A stretch of DNA of 33,365 bases from IMG/VR virus record IMGVR_UViG_2737471753_000001, positions 1 through 33,365 of that record; one strand, given 5' to 3'. A program made the position numbers and the translations under genes. This DNA is from a virus (Duplodnaviria > Heunggongvirae > Uroviricota > Caudoviricetes). Positions within the stretch are counted from its first letter, which is position 1. The number at the start of each line of letters is the position of its first letter. Under the pieces are notes generated by a model, which was not told the DNA's origin, did not search any database, and saw only the letters and a program-made list of their open reading frames with translations. This document shows, one piece after another, positions 288 to 30,438 of the stretch.

Positions 288-1397
288 TTATTCAGTTTCC
301 GCTATCCAGTCAGGAATTTTTGCTTCAAGCTCAAGCTGCGTGGTAAAACCGCTGTTATCAATGGTGTGCTCGGCCTTTGCAATAATCCAGTCCTGATTGT
401 CGATGTCATTTTTGAAGCCTGTCACCGTGCCATGCATTTCAGGGTAGAGTTCTGCACGTCCACGCGCCAGCGTGATGGAGAATGATGCGGCTCCGCGTTG
501 TAGCTGCTGCCACTTTGCCGCTGCTGCGCGTCTTGCTGCCTGCTCGTTCTGATAAGTTTTGCGTAACACAAACACATTGCCTTCCGCGCCTTCCATATAA
601 TCACCTTCACGGCTGCTGCTTTTCTCCTTTTTGGGTTTTGGCGGTTTGCGGCGTTTCACGCTGACTTTTTTCTTTTTCCCGTAATTAAGATCAAGCCAGT
701 AAGCGCGTACCCCCGTATACGCTTCGCGGTCAGCAATGCGGAACTGATGGCGATCGCCGCTGCTGCGTGTGATGGCGAACGATGGCAACGGCTGGCCCTG
801 TGCGTTCACGCCACCGCCGGGCATGATGAATAACAGATTACCGCTTTTTACCGTGGTGATTGCGCCCAGCATTTCCGCCATGCGCGTAAGGAAGGACATG
901 TCGCTTTCTTCAGTCTGGTCGGCGTGGTCGATTTCGATATCCATCAGCATTTCGCTGATTTGCGGTTTCAGGCCGTACCGATGAGCGATGGCGGATACCA
1001 CACGCTCAACGGTCACATCATGCCATGACACCTCACGTTTAACGTTAAATTCATCCCGAAAATCTGCGCTTCTGGCTGAAACAGTCAGCCTGTCCGGCGG
1101 TCCTTCGTGAGCGATTTCATCAACAATGTAAGTGCCTTTTTCTGTCAGCGGTTCTCCTTTCCAGCCAATGAGAACCGTCAGGCGCGCGCCCCGTGGCGGT
1201 AGCTGCAACTGACCATCCGCATCATCCAGCGTGATGGTGAGCTGGTCCGCCTCAAATCCCCGGTTGTCGGTCAGTGACAGGCTCATCAGGCGCTCTGCCA
1301 CGCCTGACAGCGTTTTACCCTCCGCGAGAATATCAAAATCCGGCATTTTCACGGGGTCTGTGCCCTGACTGAGCAATTGCATGGTGGTGTCGGTCAT
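288..1397 (-). CDS. D: tail protein D (late control gene D family)
   Basis: Track ORF 288..1418 (376 aa) matches P2 gpD in size and sequence character; start placed at the internal ATG at 1397 (MTDTTMQLL...) because it is preceded by a strong SD (AGGGAGGGAAAG) whereas the ATG at 1418 is not. Confidence 0.85.
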   Translation of the reverse strand: MTDTTMQLLSQGTDPVKMPDFDILAEGKTLSGVAERLMSLSLTDNRGFEADQLTITLDDADGQLQLPPRGARLTVLIGWKGEPLTEKGTYIVDEIAHEGPPDRLTVSARSADFRDEFNVKREVSWHDVTVERVVSAIAHRYGLKPQISEMLMDIEIDHADQTEESDMSFLTRMAEMLGAITTVKSGNLLFIMPGGGVNAQGQPLPSFAITRSSGDRHQFRIADREAYTGVRAYWLDLNYGKKKKVSVKRRKPPKPKKEKSSSREGDYMEGAEGNVFVLRKTYQNEQAARRAAAAKWQQLQRGAASFSITLARGRAELYPEMHGTVTGFKNDIDNQDWIIAKAEHTIDNSGFTTQLELEAKIPDWIAETE

Positions 1398-1453
1398 CTT
1401 TCCCTCCCTGTGCGGCATGGTCGCATGTGCGTGCGGAGGGGGTTACTGCTTTT

Positions 1454-6650: not shown

Positions 6651-7139
6651 ATGATGATGATCTACGGCATGTTTGTTTTTGAGCTGCGCACGCTGCCGCA
6701 TCAGCAGTTACAGCAAAACAAAAGCTGGCGGCATGTGAAAAATGAACGCGTTAACCGTTCAGCAAGCTGGCAGTATATCGGTGCAGGTGATGATCGCATC
6801 GTTCTTTCTGGTGTGCTTTATCCTGAAATTACAGGTGGCGAAGTGTCGCTGTCGCTGCTGACCACGCAGGCGTATACAGGACGACCCTGGCCTTTGATTG
6901 ATGGCGTCGGGCAGATTTACGGCATGTATGTCCTGACCGGAACGAATACGACCCGTTCCGAGTTTGATCGCTACGGTAAGGCGAAAAAGATAGAATTTTC
7001 ACTGACCCTTGAACGCTGTGATGAGGATTTGCGGGAGCGCCTGCAATCCTCATCGTTCAGTGATATGCTGTCCGGCTTCAAAGATAAGGTGACATCATCT
7101 CTTAACAGCGCGGCCAGTTCAGTTAAAGGGCTGTTCTGA
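6651..7139 (+). CDS. U: tail protein U
   Basis: Track ORF 6645..7139 (164 aa) resembles P2 gpU; SD GAGGAG at 6636..6641 is best spaced for the ATG at 6651 (MMMIYGMFVF...). Confidence 0.85.
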   Translation: MMMIYGMFVFELRTLPHQQLQQNKSWRHVKNERVNRSASWQYIGAGDDRIVLSGVLYPEITGGEVSLSLLTTQAYTGRPWPLIDGVGQIYGMYVLTGTNTTRSEFDRYGKAKKIEFSLTLERCDEDLRERLQSSSFSDMLSGFKDKVTSSLNSAASSVKGLF

Positions 7140-7150
7140 TTTAACACAAA

Positions 7151-7186
7151 AACCGCTAATGGTCAGATTAGCGGTTATTTTGTTTT
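7151..7186. terminator. bidirectional intrinsic terminator between convergent U and invertase genes
   Basis: Perfect 10-bp stem AACCGCTAAT / ATTAGCGGTT with 6-nt loop GGTCAG, preceded by an A-run and followed by ATTTTGTTTT. Confidence 0.75.
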
Positions 7187-7762
7187 CTGACTCTTCTCTA
7201 TTGTTCCGCTTGATTCTCCTGCGGGGTGGTAACGATAAATCGTCGATGTACCAATGCCGTAAATTATTGCCAGTTGTTTTCTGTCGTGACCGTTTTTAAT
7301 CAGCCTTGCTATTTGCTCATGCTGTTCTTTTGTCAGCTTCGGTCGACGTCCGCCTGTGCGCCCCCGTGCGCGCGCTGCCGCCAGTCCGGCCAGTGTACGT
7401 TCAACAATTAATTCACGTTCCATTTCAGCCAGGGCACCCATCACGTGGAAGAAAAAACGCCCCATTGGAGAAGATGTATCTATGCTGTCGGTCAGACTGC
7501 GAAAATTAATCCCTCGCTCCCGTAGTTCTCCGACGAGAGAAATCAGATGTTTCATGCTTCGCCCAAGGCGATCCAGTTTCCAGACAACCAGCGTGTCACC
7601 TTTTTGAAGCCGCTTTAAAGCGCGTTTTAATCCCGGTCGGTCTGTCTTTGTCCCGCTTAATTTATCTTCAAATATTTGTTCACATCCTGCACAAACAAGA
7701 GCGTTTCGTTGCAGGTCTGTATTCTGGTCATTTGTTGATACCCTTACATAACCAATCAGCAC
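7175..7762 (-). CDS. pin: serine recombinase, DNA invertase of the Pin/Gin/Hin/Cin family
   Basis: N-terminus LIGYVRVSTNDQNTDLQRNAL... (catalytic Ser region), resolvase core ...WKLDRLGRS...SPMGRFFFHVMGALAEMERELI... and a C-terminal HTH; start placed at the GTG giving (M)LIGYVRV, as in Gin/Pin; track ORF extends to a TTG at 7780. Confidence 0.9.
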   Translation of the reverse strand: MLIGYVRVSTNDQNTDLQRNALVCAGCEQIFEDKLSGTKTDRPGLKRALKRLQKGDTLVVWKLDRLGRSMKHLISLVGELRERGINFRSLTDSIDTSSPMGRFFFHVMGALAEMERELIVERTLAGLAAARARGRTGGRRPKLTKEQHEQIARLIKNGHDRKQLAIIYGIGTSTIYRYHPAGESSGTIEKSQKTK

Positions 7763-7816
7763 ACTGAATCTCCCGTCCAAAAGCGCAAATCATGCCATGC
7801 AGGCCGGAAACGGCCA

Positions 7817-7842
7817 TTATCTAAAACCTCGGTTTACAGGAA
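7817..7842. other. left inversion crossover site (gix/hix-like, 26 bp)
   Basis: TTATCTAAAACCTCGGTTTACAGGAA; inverted-repeat partner of 10847..10872; a 24-bp perfect inverted repeat CCTCGGTTTACAGGAAACGGTAAA spans 7827..7850 and 10839..10862; matches the Gin/Hin crossover-site pattern as recalled. Confidence 0.85.
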
Positions 7843-8784
7843 ACGGTAAATCAGGCTTCTGGCGCATTACAGAAAAACCAGAACGGCGCAGATATTCCGG
7901 GGAAAGATACCTTCACCAAAATATTGGGGCCTGCCGCGCATATAGCGCATGGCTGAATATTGGTGGCGATAGTCAGGTCTGGACAACCGCACAATTCATT
8001 TCGTGGCTGGAGAGTCAGGGGCATTTAACCATCCTTACTGGATGTGCAAAGGCTCATGGCTTATGCAAATAATAAGGTCATTACAGATACAGGTTGCGGA
8101 AATATTTGTCTTGCAGGTGCTGTGGTGGAAGTTATTGGCACCCGCGGCGCAATGACCATACGCGTTACCACGCCGAGCACGTCCAGCGGTGGCGGAATCA
8201 CTAACGCTCAATTCACTTATATTAATCATGGTGATGCTTACGCTCCTGGCTGGCGACGAGACTACAACACGAAAAACCAGCAGCCTGCATTTGCTTTAGG
8301 GCAAACAGGACGCAGGGTCGCAAATGATAAAGCTGTTGGCTGGAACTGGAATAGCGGCGTTTATGATGCAGATATCAGTGGCGCATCGACATTAATCCTC
8401 CACTTTAATATGAATGCGGGGAGTTGCCCTGCTGTACAGTTCCGCGTGAATTACAGAAATGGCGGTATCTTTTATCGTTCAGCGCGTGATGGTTATGGCT
8501 TTGAAGCTAACTGGTCAGAGTTTTACACCACAACACGCAAACCCTCTGCGGGAGATGTTGGTGCATATACGCAGGCAGAATGTAACTCAAGTTTATTACA
8601 GGTATTCGCCTTGGCGGTCTGTCATCTGTTCAGACATGGAATGGTCCTGGCTGGTCTGACAGGTCAGGTTATGTCGTTACTGGTTCAGTTAACGGAAACC
8701 GTGATGAATTAATTGATACAACTCAGGCAAGGCCAATTCAGTATTGCATTAATGGAACGTGGTATAACGCGGGAGTATTTAATT
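7843..8784 (+). pseudogene. alternative tail-fibre C-terminal (receptor-binding) cassette, currently not fused to H, apparently interrupted by frameshifts
   Basis: Reading out from the left crossover site in the H frame gives fibre-like sequence that stops after about 42 codons; the protein-like reading continues through three further frames (track ORFs 7797..8072, 8044..8712, then a frame ending ...[17 protein letters not shown]...), with shifts at A- and G-runs. Confidence 0.45.
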
Positions 8785-9234
8785 ATGATGCACTTAAAAA
8801 ATATTACTGCTGGCAACCCTAAAACAAAAGAGCAATACCAGCTAACAAAGCAATTTAACATCAAATGGCTTTATTCAGATGATGGAAAAAACTGGTATGA
8901 GGAACAAAAGAATTTCCAGCCAGACACTTTGAAAATGGTCTATGACCATAACGGCGTTATTATTTGTATTGAAAAGGATGTTTCAGCAATTAATCCGGAA
9001 GGCGCAAGCGTCGTTGAATTACCTGATATTACAGCAAATCGCCGGGCTGATATTTCGGGTAAATGGATGTTCAAAGATGGCGTAGTGATAAAGCGAACTT
9101 ATACCGAGGAGGAACAGAGGCAGCAGGCAGAGAATGAAAAGCAAAGCCTGTTGCAACTTGTCAGGGATAAAACCCAGCTATGGGACTCACAGCTACGGCT
9201 GGGTATCATTTCCGACGAGAATAAACAAAATTAA
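8785..9234 (+). CDS. tail fibre assembly protein (Tfa; Mu U / P2 G family), plus-strand copy
   Basis: [22 protein letters not shown]...[41 protein letters not shown]...; RBS GGGA upstream of ATG 8785. The conserved Tfa C-terminus (...[28 protein letters not shown]) continues in another frame to about 9316, implying a 1-nt shift near 9225. Confidence 0.7.
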
Positions 9235-9328
9235 CCGAGTGGATGCTCTATGCGCAGAAGGTCGAATCCACAGACACCTCCAGCCTGCCAGTAACGTTTC
9301 CAGAACAACCAGAATGAAACAAGGCCCG

Positions 9329-9850
9329 CTATCGGGCCTTAATTTTATTCAGGCTTTTGTGGCCATTCAGGATTTGCCGTATCCACACGGCTGACCAGAA
9401 CACTATAGCGTTCCATGACTCCAGTCGTGCGCGTTCCTCATCCGTCGCCATATTCAGCCTGACAGCGCGTTCCAGTGGCTGAATAACGTTTTCTGCTTCG
9501 GAAAGTAACGCGGCCTTTTGTGATTCGGCCTGTTGTTGTTGCTCGTCTGCCGTATAAATCCGTTTAACCACAGCTCCGTCCTTAAACATCCACTTACCGG
9601 AATCATCAGCACGACGATTAGCTGTAATATCAGGAACCTCAACGACGCTATAACCTTCAGGGTTAAGCGTGGAGCATCTTTGTGATGGCGACAATAATAT
9701 TATTTGCATCGTAAACAATCTTTATGTGTCTGGCTGAAAGTTTTTCACTTCCTCATACCAGTTTTTTCCGTCTTCGGACCATAACCAGATAACATCAAAT
9801 TCTTTGTTAGCTGATATTGTTCTTTTGTTTTGGATTTCCAGACTTAATAT
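9329..9850 (-). pseudogene. P2 G-like tail fibre assembly gene remnant (minus-strand copy) with N-terminal frameshifts
   Basis: Intact C-terminal part in track ORF 9329..9718 (...[34 protein letters not shown]...); N-terminal part [13 protein letters not shown]... is readable only by switching frame at least three times. Confidence 0.55.
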
Positions 9851-10846
9851 TTTTTAAATGCTGCATAAATTACACCTGTGCGACGTTATACCATGTGCCA
9901 TTGATGTATTTTTGTATTGGTCTGAATACTGCCGGATCATCGCCATCAACTTCACCGACAATGCCAAGCCCGTAATTGCATGACCTGATTTCTCATACAT
10001 CACGCCTTTTTGCATAGTCTGAACAACACGTGTGCCAAGTCGGACATCTCTCACATAACGTGAATCAAATTGCCATAGTTGCCGGGAATAACTTGCGAGC
10101 CGCAAAGCCAGTTCCCGTTATTATCCATGTACGCCTGACCATCGGTACCATTGGCTGTCCTTGAGTTATTAATCATGTAGATGCCAAATTGCTTATTCCC
10201 CAGTCCACCAATCATAAATTTGCGATCAGCGTGGTCCTGACGAAGTAATGCCTGCGCACCATCGGTGGATACCGCATTGCGTCCCCAAATAACATTCTGG
10301 TCACGCATATGAATCCACATGCCGGTACTACTGTTAATTGCAAAACGGTTTGCAATATATCCCTGTAACATCAAGACCATGCCCATGCTTATCCGACCAG
10401 TTCTAAGGTTAATCGTAAAGGGGCGTAATGGCCCTATATCACCATTTTCTCCCTCATTCTCTCGTGTAGGGATGATATGCAGGCATTCTTCAGAACGGCG
10501 AAAAATGGCACCAAAAGATGAATTAAATATCCTCAGTGCATTGACTGTCGATATTTTTACTTCACTGCTGAAAAGGCTTTAACAAGACAGACAAAGCATC
10601 CCATTTAAGATTCATCAGGTCTTTTGTTGTGGTGCTTTGTTTGCTTCTCCATTTGAAATATTCATTGCCGTTGTCGCCTGTTTCAAACCACATGTATGAA
10701 TCAGTATCGCTATCGGCATCATTTTAAAACCAATCTTTGCCCAGTCAGTATTTCGAATCCAGGCAAGGATTGAGTCGTTTTCAAATTAAGCCCACCGGAC
10801 AAGGTATCGCCATTTTTTTGCACGGCGTACCAGCCCTGTTTACCGT
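9851..10846 (-). pseudogene. P2 H-like tail-fibre C-terminal cassette (currently joined to H) degraded by frameshifts and stops
   Basis: Fibre-like sequence is scattered over three frames (GNAVQKNGDTLSGGL..., ENDSILAWIRNTDWAKIGFK..., ...FDSRYVRDVRLGTRVVQ..., ...GEVDGDD..RPIQKYINGTWYNVAQV*), with a stretch around 10390..10560 closed in all frames. In the current orientation H terminates 21 codons past the crossover site. Confidence 0.5.
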
Positions 10847-12136
10847 TTCCTGTAAACCGAGGTATTCGATAACAGCGGCAACGGTCGATTTCGCAAGAAT
10901 ATCCCGCCCGACTTTTGTCAGGGTTGCCAGGCTGGCGACATCATTCCCCGTAAAATACGGAAACTTGTCTGCCGCAGTAGCAAGCCCGGCCAGCGCCGTC
11001 AGGGTGGCATCTTTCGGTTGCTTACCCGCAAGCGCTTTAGTCATGGTGGTCGCAAAATTCGGGTCGTTTCCCAGCGCCGCCGCTAACTCGTTCAGCGTAT
11101 TCAGTGCGTCAGGTGACGAATCTACAAGGGCGGCAATCGCAGCCATAACGAAAGCCGTGCTTGCGATTTGGGTATTATTCGTTCCCTGTCGCGCAGTTGG
11201 CGTTGTTGGCGTTCCGGTCAACGCAGGACTGTTTAAGGGCGCTTTCTTGTTCGTTTCATCCATTACCGCCTTAACCGCTTTCGATGTCGCGGCCAGTGTT
11301 TCAGACGTGCTGTTGGTGGCACTACTGAGCTGGACTATCCCTTTTTGTGCCGTCGTGGCGTCCTGAGCGGTATATTTTGCGTTAGCAAGGTCATACGCGG
11401 CCTTTACTGCTTTCGGCGTTGCAGCCTGCGTTTCAGACGTGCTGTTGGTGGCGCTACTGAGCTGGACAAGGCCTTTTCGTGCCGTCGTGGCGTCCTGAGC
11501 GGTATATTTTCCGTTAGCTAGGTCATACGCGGCCTTAACCGCTTTCGGCGTTGCAGCCTGCGTTTCAGACACGCTGTTAGTGGCGCTACTGAGTTGAACA
11601 AAGCCTTTTGCGGTCAGCGAGGCGTCCGGGTGACGTCGTGACTGTTCATGCTCTTTCAGTTTGTCATCCACGTAATCCACTGTGGCCATCACCATGGTGT
11701 TATCCACGGTAAGCGCCACGGTGGCCGTGCTGGATACGGTCAGAATGGTGCGAAATGTTTGTGCACGTCCGGACCCTTCGGCAACGGTTGGTTTGTAACT
11801 TTCGGCAGTATTGCCCACCGCGATTAAATCGCCGTGCTCATCAAATACACCAATTTCCCGGATCCAGAATCCGCCCGTTTCAGGAGGAATAACCAGCTCC
11901 GCAATAATGCGGTTCTGATGTGTTGCGTCCAGGATGACGCGATTAACAGTGTGTCGCCACACCTCATGCACCAGACGGGTCTGCTTACTGTCTGGTGTGG
12001 GCAACGTGCCGCCACCGTCGCCCACGGCCATATGAGTCAGGCGGACAGGCTTACCATCTGGCGCGGCTGCCTGAGCTAATTTTTTGGCACCTGTATCGGT
12101 GATAACGGTTTTAAATTTTCGTGTTGTGGTACTCAT
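10781..12136 (-). CDS. H: tail fibre protein H, constant N-terminal region plus a short out-of-module tail
   Basis: 451-aa ORF with conserved fibre N-terminus and an internal threefold 44-aa repeat; positioned after I as in P2; the crossover site lies 22 codons before its stop. Confidence 0.85.
   Translation of the reverse strand: MSTTTRKFKTVITDTGAKKLAQAAAPDGKPVRLTHMAVGDGGGTLPTPDSKQTRLVHEVWRHTVNRVILDATHQNRIIAELVIPPETGGFWIREIGVFDEHGDLIAVGNTAESYKPTVAEGSGRAQTFRTILTVSSTATVALTVDNTMVMATVDYVDDKLKEHEQSRRHPDASLTAKGFVQLSSATNSVSETQAATPKAVKAAYDLANGKYTAQDATTARKGLVQLSSATNSTSETQAATPKAVKAAYDLANAKYTAQDATTAQKGIVQLSSATNSTSETLAATSKAVKAVMDETNKKAPLNSPALTGTPTTPTARQGTNNTQIASTAFVMAAIAALVDSSPDALNTLNELAAALGNDPNFATTMTKALAGKQPKDATLTALAGLATAADKFPYFTGNDVASLATLTKVGRDILAKSTVAAVIEYLGLQETVNRAGTPCKKMAIPCPVGLI
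10847..10872. other. right inversion crossover site (gix/hix-like, 26 bp) inside the H reading frame
   Basis: TTCCTGTAAACCGAGGTATTCGATAA; inverted partner of 7817..7842; encodes ...VIEYLGLQET... in the H frame, analogous to the crossover site inside Mu gene S. Confidence 0.85.
11269..11640. repeat. tandem direct repeat, 132-bp unit, about 2.8 copies, inside H
   Basis: Units begin at 11269, 11401 and 11533 and are nearly identical; they encode a repeated 44-aa fibre shaft segment (...QLSSATNSTSETQAATPKAVKAAYDLAN.KYTAQDATTA.KG.V...). Confidence 0.85.
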
Positions 12137-23810: not shown

Positions 23811-23840
23811 AAAAAAGGGCTTTATTAGCCCTTAATTTTT
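23811..23840. terminator. bidirectional intrinsic terminator at the 3' end of the cargo operon
   Basis: Stem AAGGGC / GCCCTT with 7-nt loop, flanked by an A6 run and AATTTTT; on the minus strand the hairpin is followed by TTTTTTATT just after the PIN-like gene stop. Confidence 0.7.
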
Positions 23841-24477
23841 ACCTTCCCCAGTCCCGATCAGGAAGTCTATCTTTGAAGGCAAGGTAATCGTAAAACTCAC
23901 GAGTATGGGAAAAAATACATTCGCACATTGCAGCGCCAGCGTTTGAAAGAGCCAATTTCAACATGCCGTCAGGTTTAGGATTGCTCACCAAATTTTCATA
24001 AACTTGAGCCTGATCTAAACCGTGGACACATAACAAAAGCGAAGACTCAAAGGTAACAACCGCATCCAGTAAACGCTGATGAATCACGGAAAGGGTCGGT
24101 TGGTTTGCAACAATTGCAGTCAAACAGCGGCGATCACCAGTCATAAAAATGGCTTCTGGGTTCTCTATGCACGAGGCAAGCAATAGCTGTTCGCCTACAT
24201 CAATTCCGGGCACACTCCCCAAAAGCTCAATAAGCTGGGAGTCCTGAACTTCCGGGATATCCTGTACAGATTCAATGAAGGCTCCCACTTGCTCGTAAAC
24301 AACTTGGCTACCACACTTCCTGATTGCTTTATCAGGATTTTTCGGCAGAAGCTGAAAACGAGCAGCAGGGTTAATGAAGATCTGTTCGGGGGGTTGATTA
24401 AAAACCACTGGCAGTTGTGATAACAGATTGCACTGGGCCAGCTTCAAAATGACATCATTATCAGAAAGAACAATCAC
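23839..24477 (-). CDS. PIN-like (DUF4411-type) putative nuclease, second gene of cargo cassette
   Basis: 212-aa ORF, GTG start with SD GGGGAA, beginning (M)IVLSDNDVILKL (PIN beta1-Asp pattern) with later acidic motifs (...IFMTGDRR...); start 4 nt downstream of the upstream gene's stop; AT-rich relative to phage core. Confidence 0.5.
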   Translation of the reverse strand: MIVLSDNDVILKLAQCNLLSQLPVVFNQPPEQIFINPAARFQLLPKNPDKAIRKCGSQVVYEQVGAFIESVQDIPEVQDSQLIELLGSVPGIDVGEQLLLASCIENPEAIFMTGDRRCLTAIVANQPTLSVIHQRLLDAVVTFESSLLLCVHGLDQAQVYENLVSNPKPDGMLKLALSNAGAAMCECIFSHTREFYDYLAFKDRLPDRDWGR

Positions 24478-24480
24478 TTA

Positions 24481-25479
24481 TTATTCCCCGATTAGATTTT
24501 CTAAAACCTTAAGATCATCTTCGTGGATATTTTCTAAATCCATCCCGCTTTTCATCATGGCCCTCACAAAATCCTGATCTGAGTCTTCACCAGCGCAGAG
24601 TGATTTAACAGCGTTAACAGCAACGCCCCAGCAGTTCTGCGCGAAACCATAATTTAAAGCGATGTGAGTTGGGTCAATGTGATTATCACTTCCAAACTTT
24701 TGAGCTGCGCGAGCCAAGCCTGGCCCGTTCAACCTGCCAGCGGTAGGAACGATACGTAAAGACTTCTGCCCCGAAATGACCTGGAAGGCGAATTCGTTAG
24801 CTTCTTTCTCTACGTTGTCCGTCGAAGCATTCTCAATTTTTGCGTCAATATGGCACTGCCCGTTTTCTGCGTTCAGATGCCCTCTGGCGATATGGCCTAA
24901 CTCATGCGCGAGATCAAACAGCATATAGCCGTATTTCTGAGGCTGAGTAAGAACAATCACCGGGCGCCCGTGACTCATTAGCGCCAGTCCGGCCATTTTT
25001 TTTGCAGCTTGTGGGAAGCATTTTAGATAAACAACAGGAATGCCAATCGAATGACAGTATGTTACCAGGCTATCTAGCGACACCCATGATTCCTTAGTAA
25101 GGATCTGGGTTCTTATCGCCAAAGGATCCAGCACTGCACTAGCATCGTAAGGGACTTTGAAATTAGACGCGACAATACCGGCCGCAGTATAGGCAACAGC
25201 AGTAGCGATATCTAAATCGTTCTCGGCTACATTTTGGCGATGTTTATATTTATGGTTTCCACCAAAATTAAAGCATACCCCTTCGCTACCATCTTTCAGG
25301 CTATCCGGGAGAATGCTAAACATACGCGCAAGGTGCAGGCACGCATACTGGCGCCCTGATGGGGTGTCAGCAAGCTTCTCATCCCACCAATCAGGCAACA
25401 ACCTGCGGATGTAAGAGAGATTAAACCCGGCCCGGCCGAATTTAGAATATATCTGACTCATCTGATTATGGTTCGTCAT
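24481..25479 (-). CDS. COG2856 / ImmA-IrrE family zinc metallopeptidase-domain protein, first gene of cargo cassette
   Basis: 332-aa ORF with AGGAGG RBS; central ...GIPVVYLK...PVIVLTQPQKYGYMLFDLAHELGHIARGH...EKEANEFAFQ... (HEXXH plus downstream E-x-EAN-FA signature) and unassigned N- and C-terminal regions. Confidence 0.7.
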   Translation of the reverse strand: MTNHNQMSQIYSKFGRAGFNLSYIRRLLPDWWDEKLADTPSGRQYACLHLARMFSILPDSLKDGSEGVCFNFGGNHKYKHRQNVAENDLDIATAVAYTAAGIVASNFKVPYDASAVLDPLAIRTQILTKESWVSLDSLVTYCHSIGIPVVYLKCFPQAAKKMAGLALMSHGRPVIVLTQPQKYGYMLFDLAHELGHIARGHLNAENGQCHIDAKIENASTDNVEKEANEFAFQVISGQKSLRIVPTAGRLNGPGLARAAQKFGSDNHIDPTHIALNYGFAQNCWGVAVNAVKSLCAGEDSDQDFVRAMMKSGMDLENIHEDDLKVLENLIGE

Positions 25480-25637: not shown

Positions 25638-28025
25638 TTAGTTCCGCGAAAATGCCGCTTTCATCCTATTCACAAGATCGCTTGTTTTTTGCTTCGCCGC
25701 CATCACTTGCGACGGCAGCCTCTCCAGCCCCGACGCGGCCCGGTTGCGCGATACCAGCCGCCCGTCCTGCACGGTCATAACAAGATCGCCGCACGCCACT
25801 GACGCACCGGCCATCATCGATCTGACCATTCCGGCGCTGGCATCAATCCCACGTAGCGCCAGCAGTTCACTGATCTGCTGCTCTTTCACGGATAACCCGT
25901 CCCCGTCTTTCCGTTCCGGTGGCCGTTTTTTACGCTTACTGCGCACATCGTCACTAAGCCGCTGCGCCAGTTCTCGCTTTTCCTGCCGGGAAAGCGCATC
26001 AAAATTCACCGTCACGCCCTCAGCTGGTGCAGTCATTTCTGACTGCCCTTTAGCTTCGCTGGCGGCATGTTCAACACCGTCAGCACCTGCCGCGGGATCC
26101 CGCGTACAGTTATTGACAGAACTCCGAGGGGCGGCGCTGCCGCCTGAAAAACCAACGTCAACGGCCACACCGTCAGCGCTCTGGCGCTTCGGCACGATTT
26201 TGTATTGAGTGGTGCGGGTGAAGATCAAAGAGTCATTGCCCGTGATCGGGCAGTAAATACCAGTGATTCGCTGGACGTTATCGCCGTAGGCGTTGCCATT
26301 TTCAGTGATTTCATAGTTCAGACGGATGCGCAGTTTATCGCGCTCAACCAACGGGCCACCCTGGGCTAATACGTAGTTATCCCATTCACCACCGTTAGCA
26401 GCCTGCCGGGCGGTTTCCAGTTCAGGGTGTAACACCAGTTCGCGATCGCCCAAGCGGCGAAGTTCGCGATATACCGTGACCGGCGCACCGCCGATCTGCT
26501 GAAACTGGCGAATAGCCCAGCGCGATGCCCACGCGCTAACACGGAGTGACATTTCTTTCAGGTCTTCCCCGGTTTCGTCGTCCTTCTCACCATCCAGCGC
26601 GAAGCCGTCGATATTCTTCGAAATGTATTTCGCTATGTAGCCGGTTGCGCTGCCGTGGGCATCGTCGATCGGCACAACCTGAAAGCGGTTTTCCTGCGCT
26701 CCCGGTTCGTTGCCGTCTTCTTTCAGGGCATATTTACGGAAGATTTCGCGCGCCTGCTCGACGCATTCCGGGCGCATAAAAAGAAGTAAATGCCAGTGTG
26801 GCGTTGCATCGTGGTGCGGTTCGACCACGCGGAAACCAAAGACGCGGATCCCTTTTCTCTTCCACGCTGCGCGGGTTCTCGCCCAGACTTTGCAAAGATA
26901 TTGCTGCGTCTCGCGCGGCGACGCGCCACAGTATTTATTATTGCGGCGCCCGTTATGCTGCATGGAGTGGTAACGGGAAGGTGCTGTCAGCGTGTAGAAG
27001 TCACCGGCCAGCCCTTCCAGCTTCGCCAGATCTTCAAATCCGCGCATTCTCGTCATGAGTTCGCGGCGACGGTTGGCCGGATTGGCAACACTACCGGCGA
27101 CTTTATCGATCAGTGAAATGCGCTCGCCCGTGTCCTGGTCTTCCAGCTCCATAGCCTTAAGGTATTCACGGTTAGCCTTTTTCTGGGCCAGCCATTCCGT
27201 AAGGCACGGGGCGCTACTGTATGGGGAAGATTTTTTCTGGACGTATCCCGCCGCGATCATCAAGTGCTCACGCCATCGGGCATGGATACGGCGCAGGCGG
27301 TTTAACCACCATTGCGGTGACTCAAGACGGAGAACCGCGCGTAACGCGTCCTCCGCTTCAAGTTCTTCATTGCAATACGCTGTCCAACCTGGGATCGGCG
27401 TTTTTAGATGCACCGCCAGCGACGCAATACGGCCATAGCCAGAAAGCGCCGCGAACTCAGGATCGCCGGTGCGCGCCAACTGGTAATCGGACTCGCGTAT
27501 AAACTCGCTCGTAAAGATATCGGCAAGCGTATAAGCCAGTCTTTTTAACTCTTTTTTCCCTGCCCAAAGCATACGGAAAAGCTGATCGCGGATTGGCAGC
27601 AGAATGCCAGGCATCACAGTGTCAGGCTGGTAAACACTGTTCACGCTATCAATACGTGTTAATACGTGGCGCTCAAAGGTATTAACCAGCCAGTGATCTG
27701 CCGCTTTGCGGTCTTTCGCGTCCAGTGCATCCAGCTTCGCGGCAAAGTGGCGGCGGATATACTGCGGAAGGGAAGCCAGACGGCGACGCAGCAGCTTGCT
27801 GCGCTCCGACTTTTCGTCCTCCGCTACCAGTTCACTGAACGCAATATGCTTGCGGGTGCCGTCCGGCGTGAGATAGTCGAAACCATCCAGCCCCGTCGCT
27901 ACATCAACGCCAATCGGCTGGTATGGTTTGTTCCCGCCATAAGCGTAAGGGGTAGCATTATCAGTGCTACCCGAATACGGTGGAGGTGGAGAAGGGGCGC
28001 GACGGCCACGGGTTGCCGTAGTCAT
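25638..28025 (-). CDS. A: rolling-circle replication initiator (gpA family)
   Basis: 795-aa ORF with ...HWHLLLF... and ...GYIAKYISK... motifs typical of P2 A-type nicking initiators; start overlaps the methyltransferase stop. Confidence 0.9.
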   Translation of the reverse strand: MTTATRGRRAPSPPPPYSGSTDNATPYAYGGNKPYQPIGVDVATGLDGFDYLTPDGTRKHIAFSELVAEDEKSERSKLLRRRLASLPQYIRRHFAAKLDALDAKDRKAADHWLVNTFERHVLTRIDSVNSVYQPDTVMPGILLPIRDQLFRMLWAGKKELKRLAYTLADIFTSEFIRESDYQLARTGDPEFAALSGYGRIASLAVHLKTPIPGWTAYCNEELEAEDALRAVLRLESPQWWLNRLRRIHARWREHLMIAAGYVQKKSSPYSSAPCLTEWLAQKKANREYLKAMELEDQDTGERISLIDKVAGSVANPANRRRELMTRMRGFEDLAKLEGLAGDFYTLTAPSRYHSMQHNGRRNNKYCGASPRETQQYLCKVWARTRAAWKRKGIRVFGFRVVEPHHDATPHWHLLLFMRPECVEQAREIFRKYALKEDGNEPGAQENRFQVVPIDDAHGSATGYIAKYISKNIDGFALDGEKDDETGEDLKEMSLRVSAWASRWAIRQFQQIGGAPVTVYRELRRLGDRELVLHPELETARQAANGGEWDNYVLAQGGPLVERDKLRIRLNYEITENGNAYGDNVQRITGIYCPITGNDSLIFTRTTQYKIVPKRQSADGVAVDVGFSGGSAAPRSSVNNCTRDPAAGADGVEHAASEAKGQSEMTAPAEGVTVNFDALSRQEKRELAQRLSDDVRSKRKKRPPERKDGDGLSVKEQQISELLALRGIDASAGMVRSMMAGASVACGDLVMTVQDGRLVSRNRAASGLERLPSQVMAAKQKTSDLVNRMKAAFSRN

Positions 28026-28936
28026 TGCGCGATCTCCATGTAGGCTTTTAAGAAAGTAGCGGCTGCATAGATATTTACGGCGTTTCCGCTGGCGCGTAGT
28101 TTTCCCACTCTGGAGGGAACCCCATCAACCAGAGGCTTAAGGCCGGGTTTAACTGGCCTCCACTTTCCATCTCTGCAAAAGAGCCAGTCAGCAGATCCCC
28201 AGAATCCGTTAACCGGGCCGGGCCTGCTATCTGCGCTGTCACATCCAGCGTATCCGTTGACAGCTTCCCGTGCCGCATCCTTCCCCCCTGATACCCGCCC
28301 TTTCCATCCCTCGCCGTAGGGGTGGGCCAGCCCGCAAGACAAGCAAAGTCCTGTAAGTTCGACTGCCGACCAGCCAGCTTCTTGGCGATCACCTTCTCGG
28401 CATCCTGATAAGCGTTCTTCGTATTGCTCGCGGTTGGAGTCGGCCAGCCAGTAAGTACGCTCCCGGATGTGCGGCGCACCGACGCCCGCAGACGGAAACG
28501 CCGACGCCCCGAAGGCATAGCCCAAACTTTCCATGTCTGTTTGTACAAGGTCGATCCAGACTTCTGCATCTTTGCTTGAAGACTGTTCGCCAAATATAAC
28601 GACAGGGCGTTGCTGGCCTGCAAGCCAATGAACGGCGGGCCATAGGTGCCGCTCATCATCAAATTGTTTTCCTTCGCCTGCCTGGCTGAAAGGTTGGCAT
28701 GGGCAACTTGCTGTCCATACTGGGCGGTCATCCGGCCATCCTGCAACGCGCAAAGCCCGGGGCCAGCCTCCAAAACCTGCAAACAGGTGGACTTGAGAGA
28801 ATCCTTTAATGTCATTTGGGGTTACATCCTCAACGGAACGAGTATCAACAACGCCGGAAGCGATAAGCCCGGCATCAATGAGGTTGCGCAGGTATTGCGC
28901 GGCGAAGGGGTCGATTTCGTTGTAGTAGGCGGTCAC
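28022..28936 (-). CDS. DNA (cytosine-5) methyltransferase, possibly frame-disrupted
   Basis: 304-aa frame carries C5-MTase motif I (FAGFGGW), motif IV (SCPCQPFSQAG), a motif VIII-like HIRERTYW and a C-terminal GNAV; a +1 frame (track ORF 28075..28815) is open across most of the gene and carries a duplicated GWPTPTA motif. Confidence 0.65.
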   Translation of the reverse strand: MTAYYNEIDPFAAQYLRNLIDAGLIASGVVDTRSVEDVTPNDIKGFSQVHLFAGFGGWPRALRVAGWPDDRPVWTASCPCQPFSQAGEGKQFDDERHLWPAVHWLAGQQRPVVIFGEQSSSKDAEVWIDLVQTDMESLGYAFGASAFPSAGVGAPHIRERTYWLADSNREQYEERLSGCREGDRQEAGWSAVELTGLCLSCGLAHPYGEGWKGRVSGGKDAAREAVNGYAGCDSADSRPGPVNGFWGSADWLFCRDGKWRPVKPGLKPLVDGVPSRVGKLRASGNAVNIYAAATFLKAYMEIAQ

Positions 28937-29253
28937 TGCTGCCCCTCCGCCTTTCGGCTACACCGATCGATTACTTGGTACTGAATTTCTAAACCCAGCT
29001 TTTCAGCAAGCGCGTGCTCTGCCTTAGCTCCCGCAGACTGCTGCCAGCCATCCAGCAAGAAGATCCCGTCAGCACAACGCAACATGGCGAAGCAAATATC
29101 CATGTATTCCGCCTGCTCTAATCCGTCCGGCAAAATCGCCGGATTAAGGGCAACGTTTCCGCGTCGCACTACGTGCCCAGCTGCACGGTTAAAAGCCTGC
29201 CGATTGAATCCAGGCAAACCGCTCATCGGGCCAGCGATATAGATTTTTGCCAT
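28933..29253 (-). CDS. DUF4406-like (nucleoside 2-deoxyribosyltransferase-like fold) protein
   Basis: 106-aa ORF MAKIYIAGPMSGLPGFN...; coupled (overlapping start/stop) to the Dam and C5-MTase genes. Confidence 0.5.
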   Translation of the reverse strand: MAKIYIAGPMSGLPGFNRQAFNRAAGHVVRRGNVALNPAILPDGLEQAEYMDICFAMLRCADGIFLLDGWQQSAGAKAEHALAEKLGLEIQYQVIDRCSRKAEGQQ

Positions 29254-30224
29254 TAAAAAGCCTCCAGATCGCCAAACGTGCCCGCCGCAACCATCGCGTT
29301 GTAAGTCGCATCACCCATCACGGCGCCACAATCAGGGCAACCGCCGCCGTAACGCCCGCAGCAGTCGCAGACAGGCAGCACGCCGATCACTTCTTTGGCC
29401 TTCTGTCGGTTGTTTTTGTCAGTGCTGACGGAACGTTGCACGCTGATTTTGTGCATCTTGAAGGGCTGATAAATCGCGCGGGTGGCTTCGGTGTCGCTGT
29501 TGGAAATGACGACCTTCACGCCATGCTTACGGTTAACTTCCAGCAGTGCCTGGACTAACTGGCGGTGGTTGTCTTCCGTGAATGGTTCGGTGTGGTATTG
29601 GGTAAAATCGGCTGTTTTGCTTTCAGGCAGGTAAGGCGGATCGCAGTAAACGAGAACATCGCCACCCGTGACGACCTGTAGAGAACGCTGGAACGGCGCG
29701 CACAGAAATATTGCCTTTGTATCGTTGGCCTTTTCGGCAAACAGGCGGATTTCATTTTCAGGAAAGTAGACGCTCTTATACTTGCCAAACGGCACGTTAA
29801 AGCCAGTCTTCCGGCTGTATCGGCATAAGCCGTTATAACCGTGGCGATTCAGATACAGGAATTGAGCAGCGCGCATAATGCACGCCATTTCAGCGCCATA
29901 ACGCAACCCACCGCTTTTGACCGTACCCACCTGCTTATTGAACGCGGCGCGGACTTCGTTGTATCCCTGCGGGCTGTTCTTACTGTTGAACAGTTCACGG
30001 GCCGCATCGATCACTAAGTCCGGGTAACGGGTGACTTCCCGATACAGGTTAATAAGATCCGGGTTGATATCAGCCAGCACATAGCGGCGGTATTCAGTCG
30101 CCAGAAATACCGATGCGCCGCCTACGAACGGTTCGATCAGGCAGTCGGCTTTAGGAAGATGCGGCAGCAGGTCAGGGAGGACACGGGTTTTTCCCCCTGC
30201 CCATTTGATGAACGGGCGGATCAT
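29253..30224 (-). CDS. dam: DNA adenine methyltransferase (Dam-like, N6A) with Cys-rich C-terminal extension
   Basis: Start placed at MIRPFIKWAGGK (SD GGAG upstream); DPPY motif (...VYCDPPYLPE...); C-terminal tail ...PVCDCCGRYGGGCPDCG... resembles a zinc ribbon. Confidence 0.8.
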   Translation of the reverse strand: MIRPFIKWAGGKTRVLPDLLPHLPKADCLIEPFVGGASVFLATEYRRYVLADINPDLINLYREVTRYPDLVIDAARELFNSKNSPQGYNEVRAAFNKQVGTVKSGGLRYGAEMACIMRAAQFLYLNRHGYNGLCRYSRKTGFNVPFGKYKSVYFPENEIRLFAEKANDTKAIFLCAPFQRSLQVVTGGDVLVYCDPPYLPESKTADFTQYHTEPFTEDNHRQLVQALLEVNRKHGVKVVISNSDTEATRAIYQPFKMHKISVQRSVSTDKNNRQKAKEVIGVLPVCDCCGRYGGGCPDCGAVMGDATYNAMVAAGTFGDLEAF

Positions 30225-30225
30225 T

Positions 30226-30438
30226 TTACAGGACTCCGTAATGGGAAGCTGGAATAGAAGGGCGCTGCAATTCTTCAATGCAGTGCTGGCGCAGATTGCT
30301 TATAAAATTGGTTGCTACAGACCCACTGGCAGAAAGGGTTAACTCACCATCACGGCGGGTTTTAATGGTTAACCCTTCATTTTCGATAGCAGGTAAAAGA
30401 ACATGCAAAATGAAACTATATTGTTCACGTCTGGTCAT
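30226..30438 (-). CDS. hypothetical protein
   Basis: 70-aa ORF (MTRREQYSFILHVLLPAIENEGL...) with SD GGAGGAAG; ends 2 nt before the Dam start. Confidence 0.45.
   Translation of the reverse strand: MTRREQYSFILHVLLPAIENEGLTIKTRRDGELTLSASGSVATNFISNLRQHCIEELQRPSIPASHYGVL

Follow-up and report, generated by a model that had tools for sequence, protein, structure and literature searches.

The DNA analysed here, referred to below as the window, is a stretch of 33,365 nucleotides (IMG/VR record IMGVR_UViG_2737471753_000001, positions 1 to 33,365) which matches, at 100% identity, the chromosome of Escherichia coli 81009 (CP021179; PCM-2857), a urinary isolate of sequence type 131 (ST131), clade C1-M27. 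It comprises a P2-family prophage, at the tail fibre gene H of which lies a locus closely resembling the G segment inversion system of phage Mu. The locus is made up of an invertase gene, two inverted crossover sites and, between the sites, a 3.0 kb segment homologous to the Mu G segment, with one fibre tip gene and its assembly chaperone gene on the plus strand (S'v-U') and another such pair on the minus strand (U-Sv).

The invertase gene (7175-7762, minus strand) codes for a Gin-type small serine recombinase of 195 amino acids with matches to the Pfam families Resolvase (1.5e-50) and HTH_7, the resolvase-type helix-turn-helix (1.1e-13). This is in agreement with the original prediction, made from the sequence alone, of a Pin/Gin/Hin-family serine invertase at this position. 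The mechanical list of open reading frames (ORFs) runs the frame on to 7780, and it is the GTG start codon that places the gene at 7175-7762. Over residues 1-123 the protein differs from Gin of Mu at two positions (K39R and V120I), the catalytic domain thus being ~98% identical, and the catalytic nucleophile Ser9, a mutation of which, in combination with detection of one orientation only, had been named beforehand as an observation that would speak against an active switch, is retained. The PDB entries 4m6f and 3uj3 of Gin, the latter an S9A mutant, match the protein at E values of about 1e-100. Both solved Gin chains carry Val at residue 114, where the invertase has the wild-type Met; since M114V is the Fis-independent activating substitution, the enzyme is expected to need Fis and an enhancer. 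From about residue 125 on, the DNA-binding domain has diverged from that of Gin, and nucleotide identity to Mu and D108 begins at 7383-7407, inside the gene at about codon 126. The combination of a Gin-like catalytic domain with a diverged DNA-binding domain points to a mosaic joint within the invertase gene, at the place where one domain passes into the other. The same protein accession, WP_000905060.1, is given to the invertase by the Prokaryotic Genome Annotation Pipeline (PGAP) in 81009, in the O145 RM strains and in strain E110019 alike. A scan of positions 7000-11000 for sigma-70 promoters gave nothing beyond chance, and no promoter was assigned to the invertase. Where gpU and the invertase gene converge, a bidirectional terminator-like hairpin (7151-7176) separates them.

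The left crossover site, TTATCTAAAACCTCGGTTTACAGGAA (7817-7842, plus strand), lies 54 bases upstream of the invertase start and reads TTATCTAAAACC TC GGTTTACAGGAA, with the central TC at 7829-7830 and a single mismatch to Mu gix. Its inverted partner, TTATCGAATACCTCGGTTTACAGGAA (10847-10872), is found inside the H reading frame; on the minus strand it reads TTATCGAATACC TC GGTTTACAGGAA, with the central dinucleotide at 10859-10860 and two mismatches to Mu gix. The central TC, which must be identical for inversion by a serine recombinase, is the same at both sites. When the 26-mer of Mu gix, as it occurs in the Mu record at the boundaries given for the G segment, was used as a query with up to three mismatches, exactly two matches were obtained in the window and none in 100 shuffles; additional gix-like sites, the sign of a shufflon, were not found in the window at this threshold. 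The two inverted 26-bp sites had been predicted at precisely these coordinates, and the possibility raised at that time, namely that they might be unrelated to recombinase targets, is countered by their near-identity to Mu gix. The inverted repeat in which they are embedded reaches 41 nt at 88% (7817-7857 and 10832-10872), and its perfect core measures 25 nt (7826-7850 and 10839-10863) instead of the 24 bp reported initially. The crossover sites of E. coli RM12275 and of phage P88 have the same 26-bp sequences as those of the window.

As deposited, the locus contains no intact cassette gene: beyond the truncated H frame the coding sequence is split into short ORFs, and all four genes are flagged as frameshifted by PGAP. 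The damage consists of 23 one-base deletions between 7917 and 10827, accompanied by no insertions, and 22 of the 23 shorten a homopolymer by one base. The deletions were called from alignments of the window with Mu, with P88 and with the prophage of the O145 strain RM12275-C1, E110019 being used for one site. At 22 of the sites the base is kept in RM12275, P88 and Mu, and at the remaining one (8057) it is kept in P88, Mu and E110019 and missing in RM12275. A single indel, located in a non-coding A run, occurs within the 12.9 kb on the right-hand side of the segment. On the left-hand side, the indels either compensate one another in pairs, within tape-measure or intergenic sequence that is divergent, or are isolated non-coding differences, of which that at 1400 is an example. 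The lesions do not extend beyond the gix sites, and the phage genes on the flanks, about 13 kb in all, are intact. Once the 23 bases are put back, H, S'v, U' and U are open again, and no nonsense codon or further lesion is left.

The plus-strand cassette starts with the silent alternative fibre C-terminus of the S'v type (7831-8782), which has a gp37_C match and carries four deletions as written (7917, 8020, 8057 and 8590). The repaired frame runs uninterrupted from the gix site as far as its stop and encodes 318 amino acids with 96.9% identity to S'v of Mu. It is followed by the silent assembly chaperone gene of the U' type (8785-9317, plus strand; Caudo_TAP), which has one deletion within the gene (9226) and another (8770) just upstream of the start codon; the repaired product comprises 177 amino acids and is 97.7% identical to U' of Mu. 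A bidirectional terminator hairpin at 9320-9341 separates this gene from the convergent chaperone gene of the U type (9345-9866, minus strand; Caudo_TAP), the one belonging to the expressed orientation, where six deletions are present (9412, 9673, 9681, 9725, 9796 and 9827) and the repaired protein of 175 amino acids shares 95.4% identity with U of Mu. A further deletion is located at 9342. The segment is completed by the variable C-terminal part of H in the present orientation, of the Sv type (9870-10858, minus strand), with ten deletions as written (9971, 10069, 10355, 10361, 10381, 10574, 10586, 10721, 10782 and 10827) and, when repaired, 332 amino acids that are 70.8% identical to Sv of Mu. 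The prediction of two convergent cassettes, each with a fibre tip and an assembly gene, is thus sound by homology (gp37_C and two Caudo_TAP matches), although as written the cassettes do not contain one whole gene, a point that the prediction had left unmentioned.

The constant N-terminal part of the P2-type tail fibre H (10859-12136, minus strand; 426 amino acids) consists of a Phage_tail_fib N-terminal domain and three Phage_fiber_2 repeats, and is unrelated to the constant part of Mu S (14.8% identity). The repeats, of 44 amino acids each, correspond to three tandem 132-nt units at 11268-11663 (100%, 89% and 61% identity). As written, the H frame extends over 10781-12136 on the minus strand, encodes 451 amino acids and terminates 22 codons past the right site. 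The original prediction had described this stop correctly, yet the stop itself is produced by the one-base deletion at 10827, and the repaired full-length H of 758 amino acids is 95.9% identical to H of P88. In both possible fusions, H-Sv and H-S'v, the peptide GLQETVN is read across the crossover site. With the missing 23 bases back in place, the fibre ORF encloses the crossover and each alternative C-terminus has a chaperone of its own, as in switches of the Mu G and P1 C type. The logic of the Mu G and P1 C segments, proposed from the outset, is supported both by this in-frame fusion of H to either tip and by the homology of the segment to Mu and D108, and the P2-type constant part with Mu-like tips likewise supports the notion of a switch, presumably of host range, joined to a P2-type tail.

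At the nucleotide level, positions 7383-10879 of the window are 91.5% identical to Mu, and for D108 the figure is about 95%. The similarity ends 7 nt beyond the right gix site. The Mu record, which is in the G(+) orientation, has the same order of gin, boundary, S'v, U', U and S, and Mu and D108 resemble the locus in layout, in the Gin catalytic domain (~98%) and in gix sites differing at one or two of 26 positions. In contrast, the constant part of the fibre is Mu S (170 amino acids) in Mu and of the P2 H type (426 amino acids) here; Mu is a transposable phage, whereas the element in the window is an integrating prophage of the P2 family, and the invertase departs from Gin beyond about residue 125. 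The C segments of P1 and P7 are 88-92% identical to the segment, and the same inversion logic is known from the P1/P7 C segment with Cin and from the P segment of e14 with Pin. Two features of the Din family, a small serine recombinase with Ser9 and a helix-turn-helix domain and a pair of inverted 26-bp sites with an identical TC centre, are present in the locus.

The closest phage in this comparison is P88 (Xuanwuvirus P88, the type species; Peduoviridae; KP063541, NC_026014), which has the same gene order (T, U, invertase, S'v-U', U-Sv, H, I, J, W, V) and is 95.6% identical over positions 7100-10950 of the window, in the same orientation and with identical 26-bp sites; it differs by a 19-nt insertion in Sv. 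In the P88 record the invertase is annotated as a 'DNA invertase', as are both fibre genes and both assembly genes under their own names, and the P88 paper on fibre determinants of host range does not mention inversion (PMC5285337). P2-like prophage loci of enteropathogenic E. coli (EPEC) E2348/69 follow the same logic as well, one of them being a three-site shufflon as opposed to the two sites of the window locus (PMC4272514). Since a P2-type tail combined with a Mu-type G segment is already present in P88, in other Xuanwuvirus records and in about 170 complete E. coli genomes, the arrangement as such is already known. Inversion in P2-like E. coli prophages has also been demonstrated experimentally, so in this respect the locus adds nothing new.

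In the Din family, the Fis-bound enhancer is normally found at the 5' end of the invertase gene, and that of Mu was reportedly located within gin by Kahmann et al. in 1985. The first 180 nt of the invertase gene in the window are identical to Mu gin at 175 positions, and a candidate Fis-dependent recombinational enhancer may accordingly be sought at 7655-7717 (minus strand), in the 5' part of the gene. A scan with a degenerate 15-mer for Fis returned many matches, among which only one pair, GACCTGCAACGAAAC and GAAGATAAATTAAGC, is suggestive: the two Fis-core-like sequences, centred at 7710 and 7662, are 48 bp apart and unchanged from Mu. They stand about 120 and 168 bp from the centre of the left site, the motif being degenerate and weak when taken alone. 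The hin enhancer lies about 100 bp from one of its crossover sites (PMC3798978).

The occurrence of both orientations was assessed by building the inverted form in silico, with the exchange at the central TC, and searching complete E. coli genomes for records collinear over at least 80% of the query. The native arrangement was collinear in 80 records and the inverted one in 94. Closely related isolates are divided between the two: among the O145 isolates, RM8988-C1, RM8843-C1 and RM12275-C1 are native and RM8995-C1 is inverted; 2022S01-140-18 is native and 2022S01-140 inverted; GF161 is native, while GF8 and GF75 are inverted. The prophage of E110019 has the same invertase accession and, across 9.9 kb on the right of the segment, 99.8% identity to the window; in the chromosome of this isolate the segment is in the native orientation. 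The record NZ_CP035755.1 of this isolate, described as 'extrachromosomal' (25,421 bp, linear), encodes the same prophage proteins with the segment inverted and with many frameshifts, and is bordered by the chromosomal flanks of E110019, namely flk and a neighbouring transporter. It is thus no replicon but an alternative-orientation contig left in the assembly, and both orientations were therefore contained in one E110019 read set. The E110019 chromosome and the extra contig were compared by means of annotation tables and shared protein accessions, and not by direct alignment. Coexistence of the two orientations in clonal cultures was shown for EPEC P2-like prophages by whole-genome sequencing and PCR (Goldberg 2014, PMC4272514). 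At the family level, the presence of both orientations, a further property of Din-type systems, is consequently borne out by the 80 and 94 records, by the sister isolates and by E110019, and the switch is very likely active.

The 23 deletions in the window are almost certainly errors of the PacBio consensus and not biological, because they are losses of one base only, are biased towards homopolymers and are bounded by the gix sites, because their repair restores all ORFs, and because the same pattern is seen in O145 assemblies. Over 15.9 kb, the clonal O145 PacBio assemblies RM12275-C1 and RM8843-C1 exhibit no substitutions and 12 one-base indels, ten of which fall between the gix sites (the segment lies at 6728-9785 of the RM12275-C1 locus used in this comparison). 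Deletion-only, homopolymer-biased errors are the typical signature of PacBio RS II. The 81009 genome was assembled with HGAP4 from PacBio RS II reads, and Illumina reads (HiSeq 2x125) were aligned to the assembly, no correction step being described (PMC5823992). The most likely cause of the errors is that the sequenced culture or DNA held both orientations, which would have degraded the consensus inside the segment, and the scar of indels suggests, indirectly, that the segment flips in 81009 itself. We are somewhat inclined to regard an indel cluster that ends at crossover sites as the by-product of a segment actively flipping in the sequenced culture, the same scar separating the clonal O145 assemblies and the other orientation having been deposited, for E110019, as a spurious contig. 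Should this hold generally, active invertible segments could be recognised in public long-read assemblies from their indel scars and from orphan contigs of the alternative orientation, without recourse to the reads, and pseudogene calls inside such segments would be systematically wrong.

Taken together, these data make it highly probable that the locus is a Gin/gix-type inversion switch in the fibre gene of a P88-like prophage, the 23 frameshifts being artefacts that likely stem from a culture of mixed orientation. Several points weigh against this interpretation. The Illumina reads aligned to the 81009 assembly should have permitted the correction of indels (PMC5823992). Both the erroneous status of the deletions and the presence of the two orientations in 81009 are deduced from assembled sequences and not from reads of the strain, and the exact way in which mixed orientation would spoil an HGAP consensus is hypothetical. 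Finally, the suggested enhancer is assigned from a degenerate motif and from the near-identity of this part of the gene to Mu gin. The existence of Illumina data for this genome also lends some weight to the opposite view, according to which the locus is a decayed remnant with 23 real frameshifts, a fibre cut after 451 amino acids and two cassettes of pseudogenes, so that no functional fibre would be made whether or not the segment flips; the deposited sequence and its PGAP annotation read in exactly this way. Decay, however, would hardly be expected to leave 23 lesions that are all of the -1 type and, in 22 cases, homopolymer contractions, without a single insertion, nonsense substitution or larger deletion, and with every ORF restored by repair. 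It would also have had to stop at the gix sites and spare ~13 kb of flanking phage genes, and it leaves the same pattern between clonal O145 assemblies with zero substitutions unaccounted for. Real pseudogenisation was rejected on the basis of the exclusive -1 homopolymer contractions, their limits at the gix sites, their absence from the relatives (apart from the base at 8057, missing in RM12275 as well) and the lack of any defect after repair, and as an explanation it is judged very unlikely.

The deletions might also be artefacts of a different origin, namely ambiguous mapping to a second copy of the segment in the genome, in which case they would be silent on inversion in 81009. Searched against the 81009 chromosome, both the full query and the right-hand half of the segment match a second place as well, but the left-hand half (7860-9300), although it carries six deletions, occurs there only once. 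A collapsed repeat would, moreover, yield substitutions and not pure deletions, and the deletions end at the gix sites. With the halves searched separately, multi-copy mapping was thus discarded as the source of the errors and seems quite improbable. It is extremely doubtful that the segment is frozen in this lineage through inactivity of the invertase or of the sites. The two changes in the outer half-site of the right site relative to Mu gix and the diverged C-terminal DNA-binding domain of the invertase could be taken as signs of such a state; yet the same invertase accession occurs in P88-like prophages of both orientations, even within the single isolate E110019, and the 26-bp sites of RM12275 and P88 are identical in sequence to those of the window.

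If the locus is a Gin/gix-type switch, as we prefer to read it, the minus-strand late operon V-W-J-I-H would transcribe the constant part of H (426 codons) and continue past the right site into the cassette that faces H at the time, giving H-Sv and then the chaperone U in the sequenced orientation. Dimers of the invertase would bind the two 26-bp sites and, with host Fis at the enhancer, bring about cleavage at the central TC and strand rotation. Strand exchange would invert the 3.0-kb segment, so that H becomes fused in frame to S'v and is followed by the chaperone U'. The cassette that does not face H, having no 5' part, would stay silent, and the terminator at 9320-9341 would keep the two apart. 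Mu particles of the G(+) and G(-) types adsorb to different enterobacterial lipopolysaccharides, and the host sets published for them are E. coli K-12 on the one hand and E. coli C, Shigella sonnei and Citrobacter on the other. By analogy, virions with H-S'v would gain a second receptor specificity, and the switch may thereby affect the host range of the phage.

It follows from the preferred interpretation that the four phage pseudogenes and the truncated fibre in the RefSeq annotation of 81009, which serves as a reference for clade C1-M27 of ST131, are likely due to assembly errors, and that the prophage is probably fully functional. More broadly, invertible segments can leave error scars and spurious contigs in long-read assemblies, which matters when pseudogenes or 'plasmids' are counted. 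The biological gain is rather small, as Gin-type fibre switches are textbook knowledge and the combination is common in E. coli genomes.

The element surrounding the locus is a complete P2-family prophage. One strand carries ogr, D, U and the genes for sheath, tube and tape measure, and the opposite strand carries V-W-J-I-H along with the genes for lysis, head, portal and terminase; the prophage also encodes an integrase, two methyltransferases and a replication protein of the gpA type. Its structural, lysis and tail module (292-23796 of the window) is 97% identical to P88 over 23.5 kb, while for the early, replication and lysogeny region at 23.8-33.4 kb no match was found in P88. With 97% identity over 292-23796 and no match over 23.8-33.4 kb, the prophage stands near the genus threshold and is a possible member of Xuanwuvirus.

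The early region that lacks a counterpart in P88 encodes a C5 cytosine methyltransferase and a Dam-like N6-adenine methyltransferase (28022-28936 and 29253-30278, respectively, both on the minus strand). An insert of two genes at 23839-25479 (minus strand), flanked on one side by the portal gene and on the other by the gene for the gpA-type replication protein, occupies the position of a P2 cargo hotspot. It codes for a protein of 212 amino acids that has no family match and for one of 332 amino acids with a Peptidase_M78/IrrE-like domain, the latter giving weak PADLOC matches to PD-Lambda-2_B, CapP and RmrA. At the left end of the window, the gpD ORF (288-1418, minus strand) is open for 376 amino acids and has a Phage_GPD match, whereas PGAP lists an 801-nt coding sequence plus a partial fragment in both 81009 and E110019. 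The one-base difference from P88 and E110019 at position 1400 lies just upstream of the likely gpD start.

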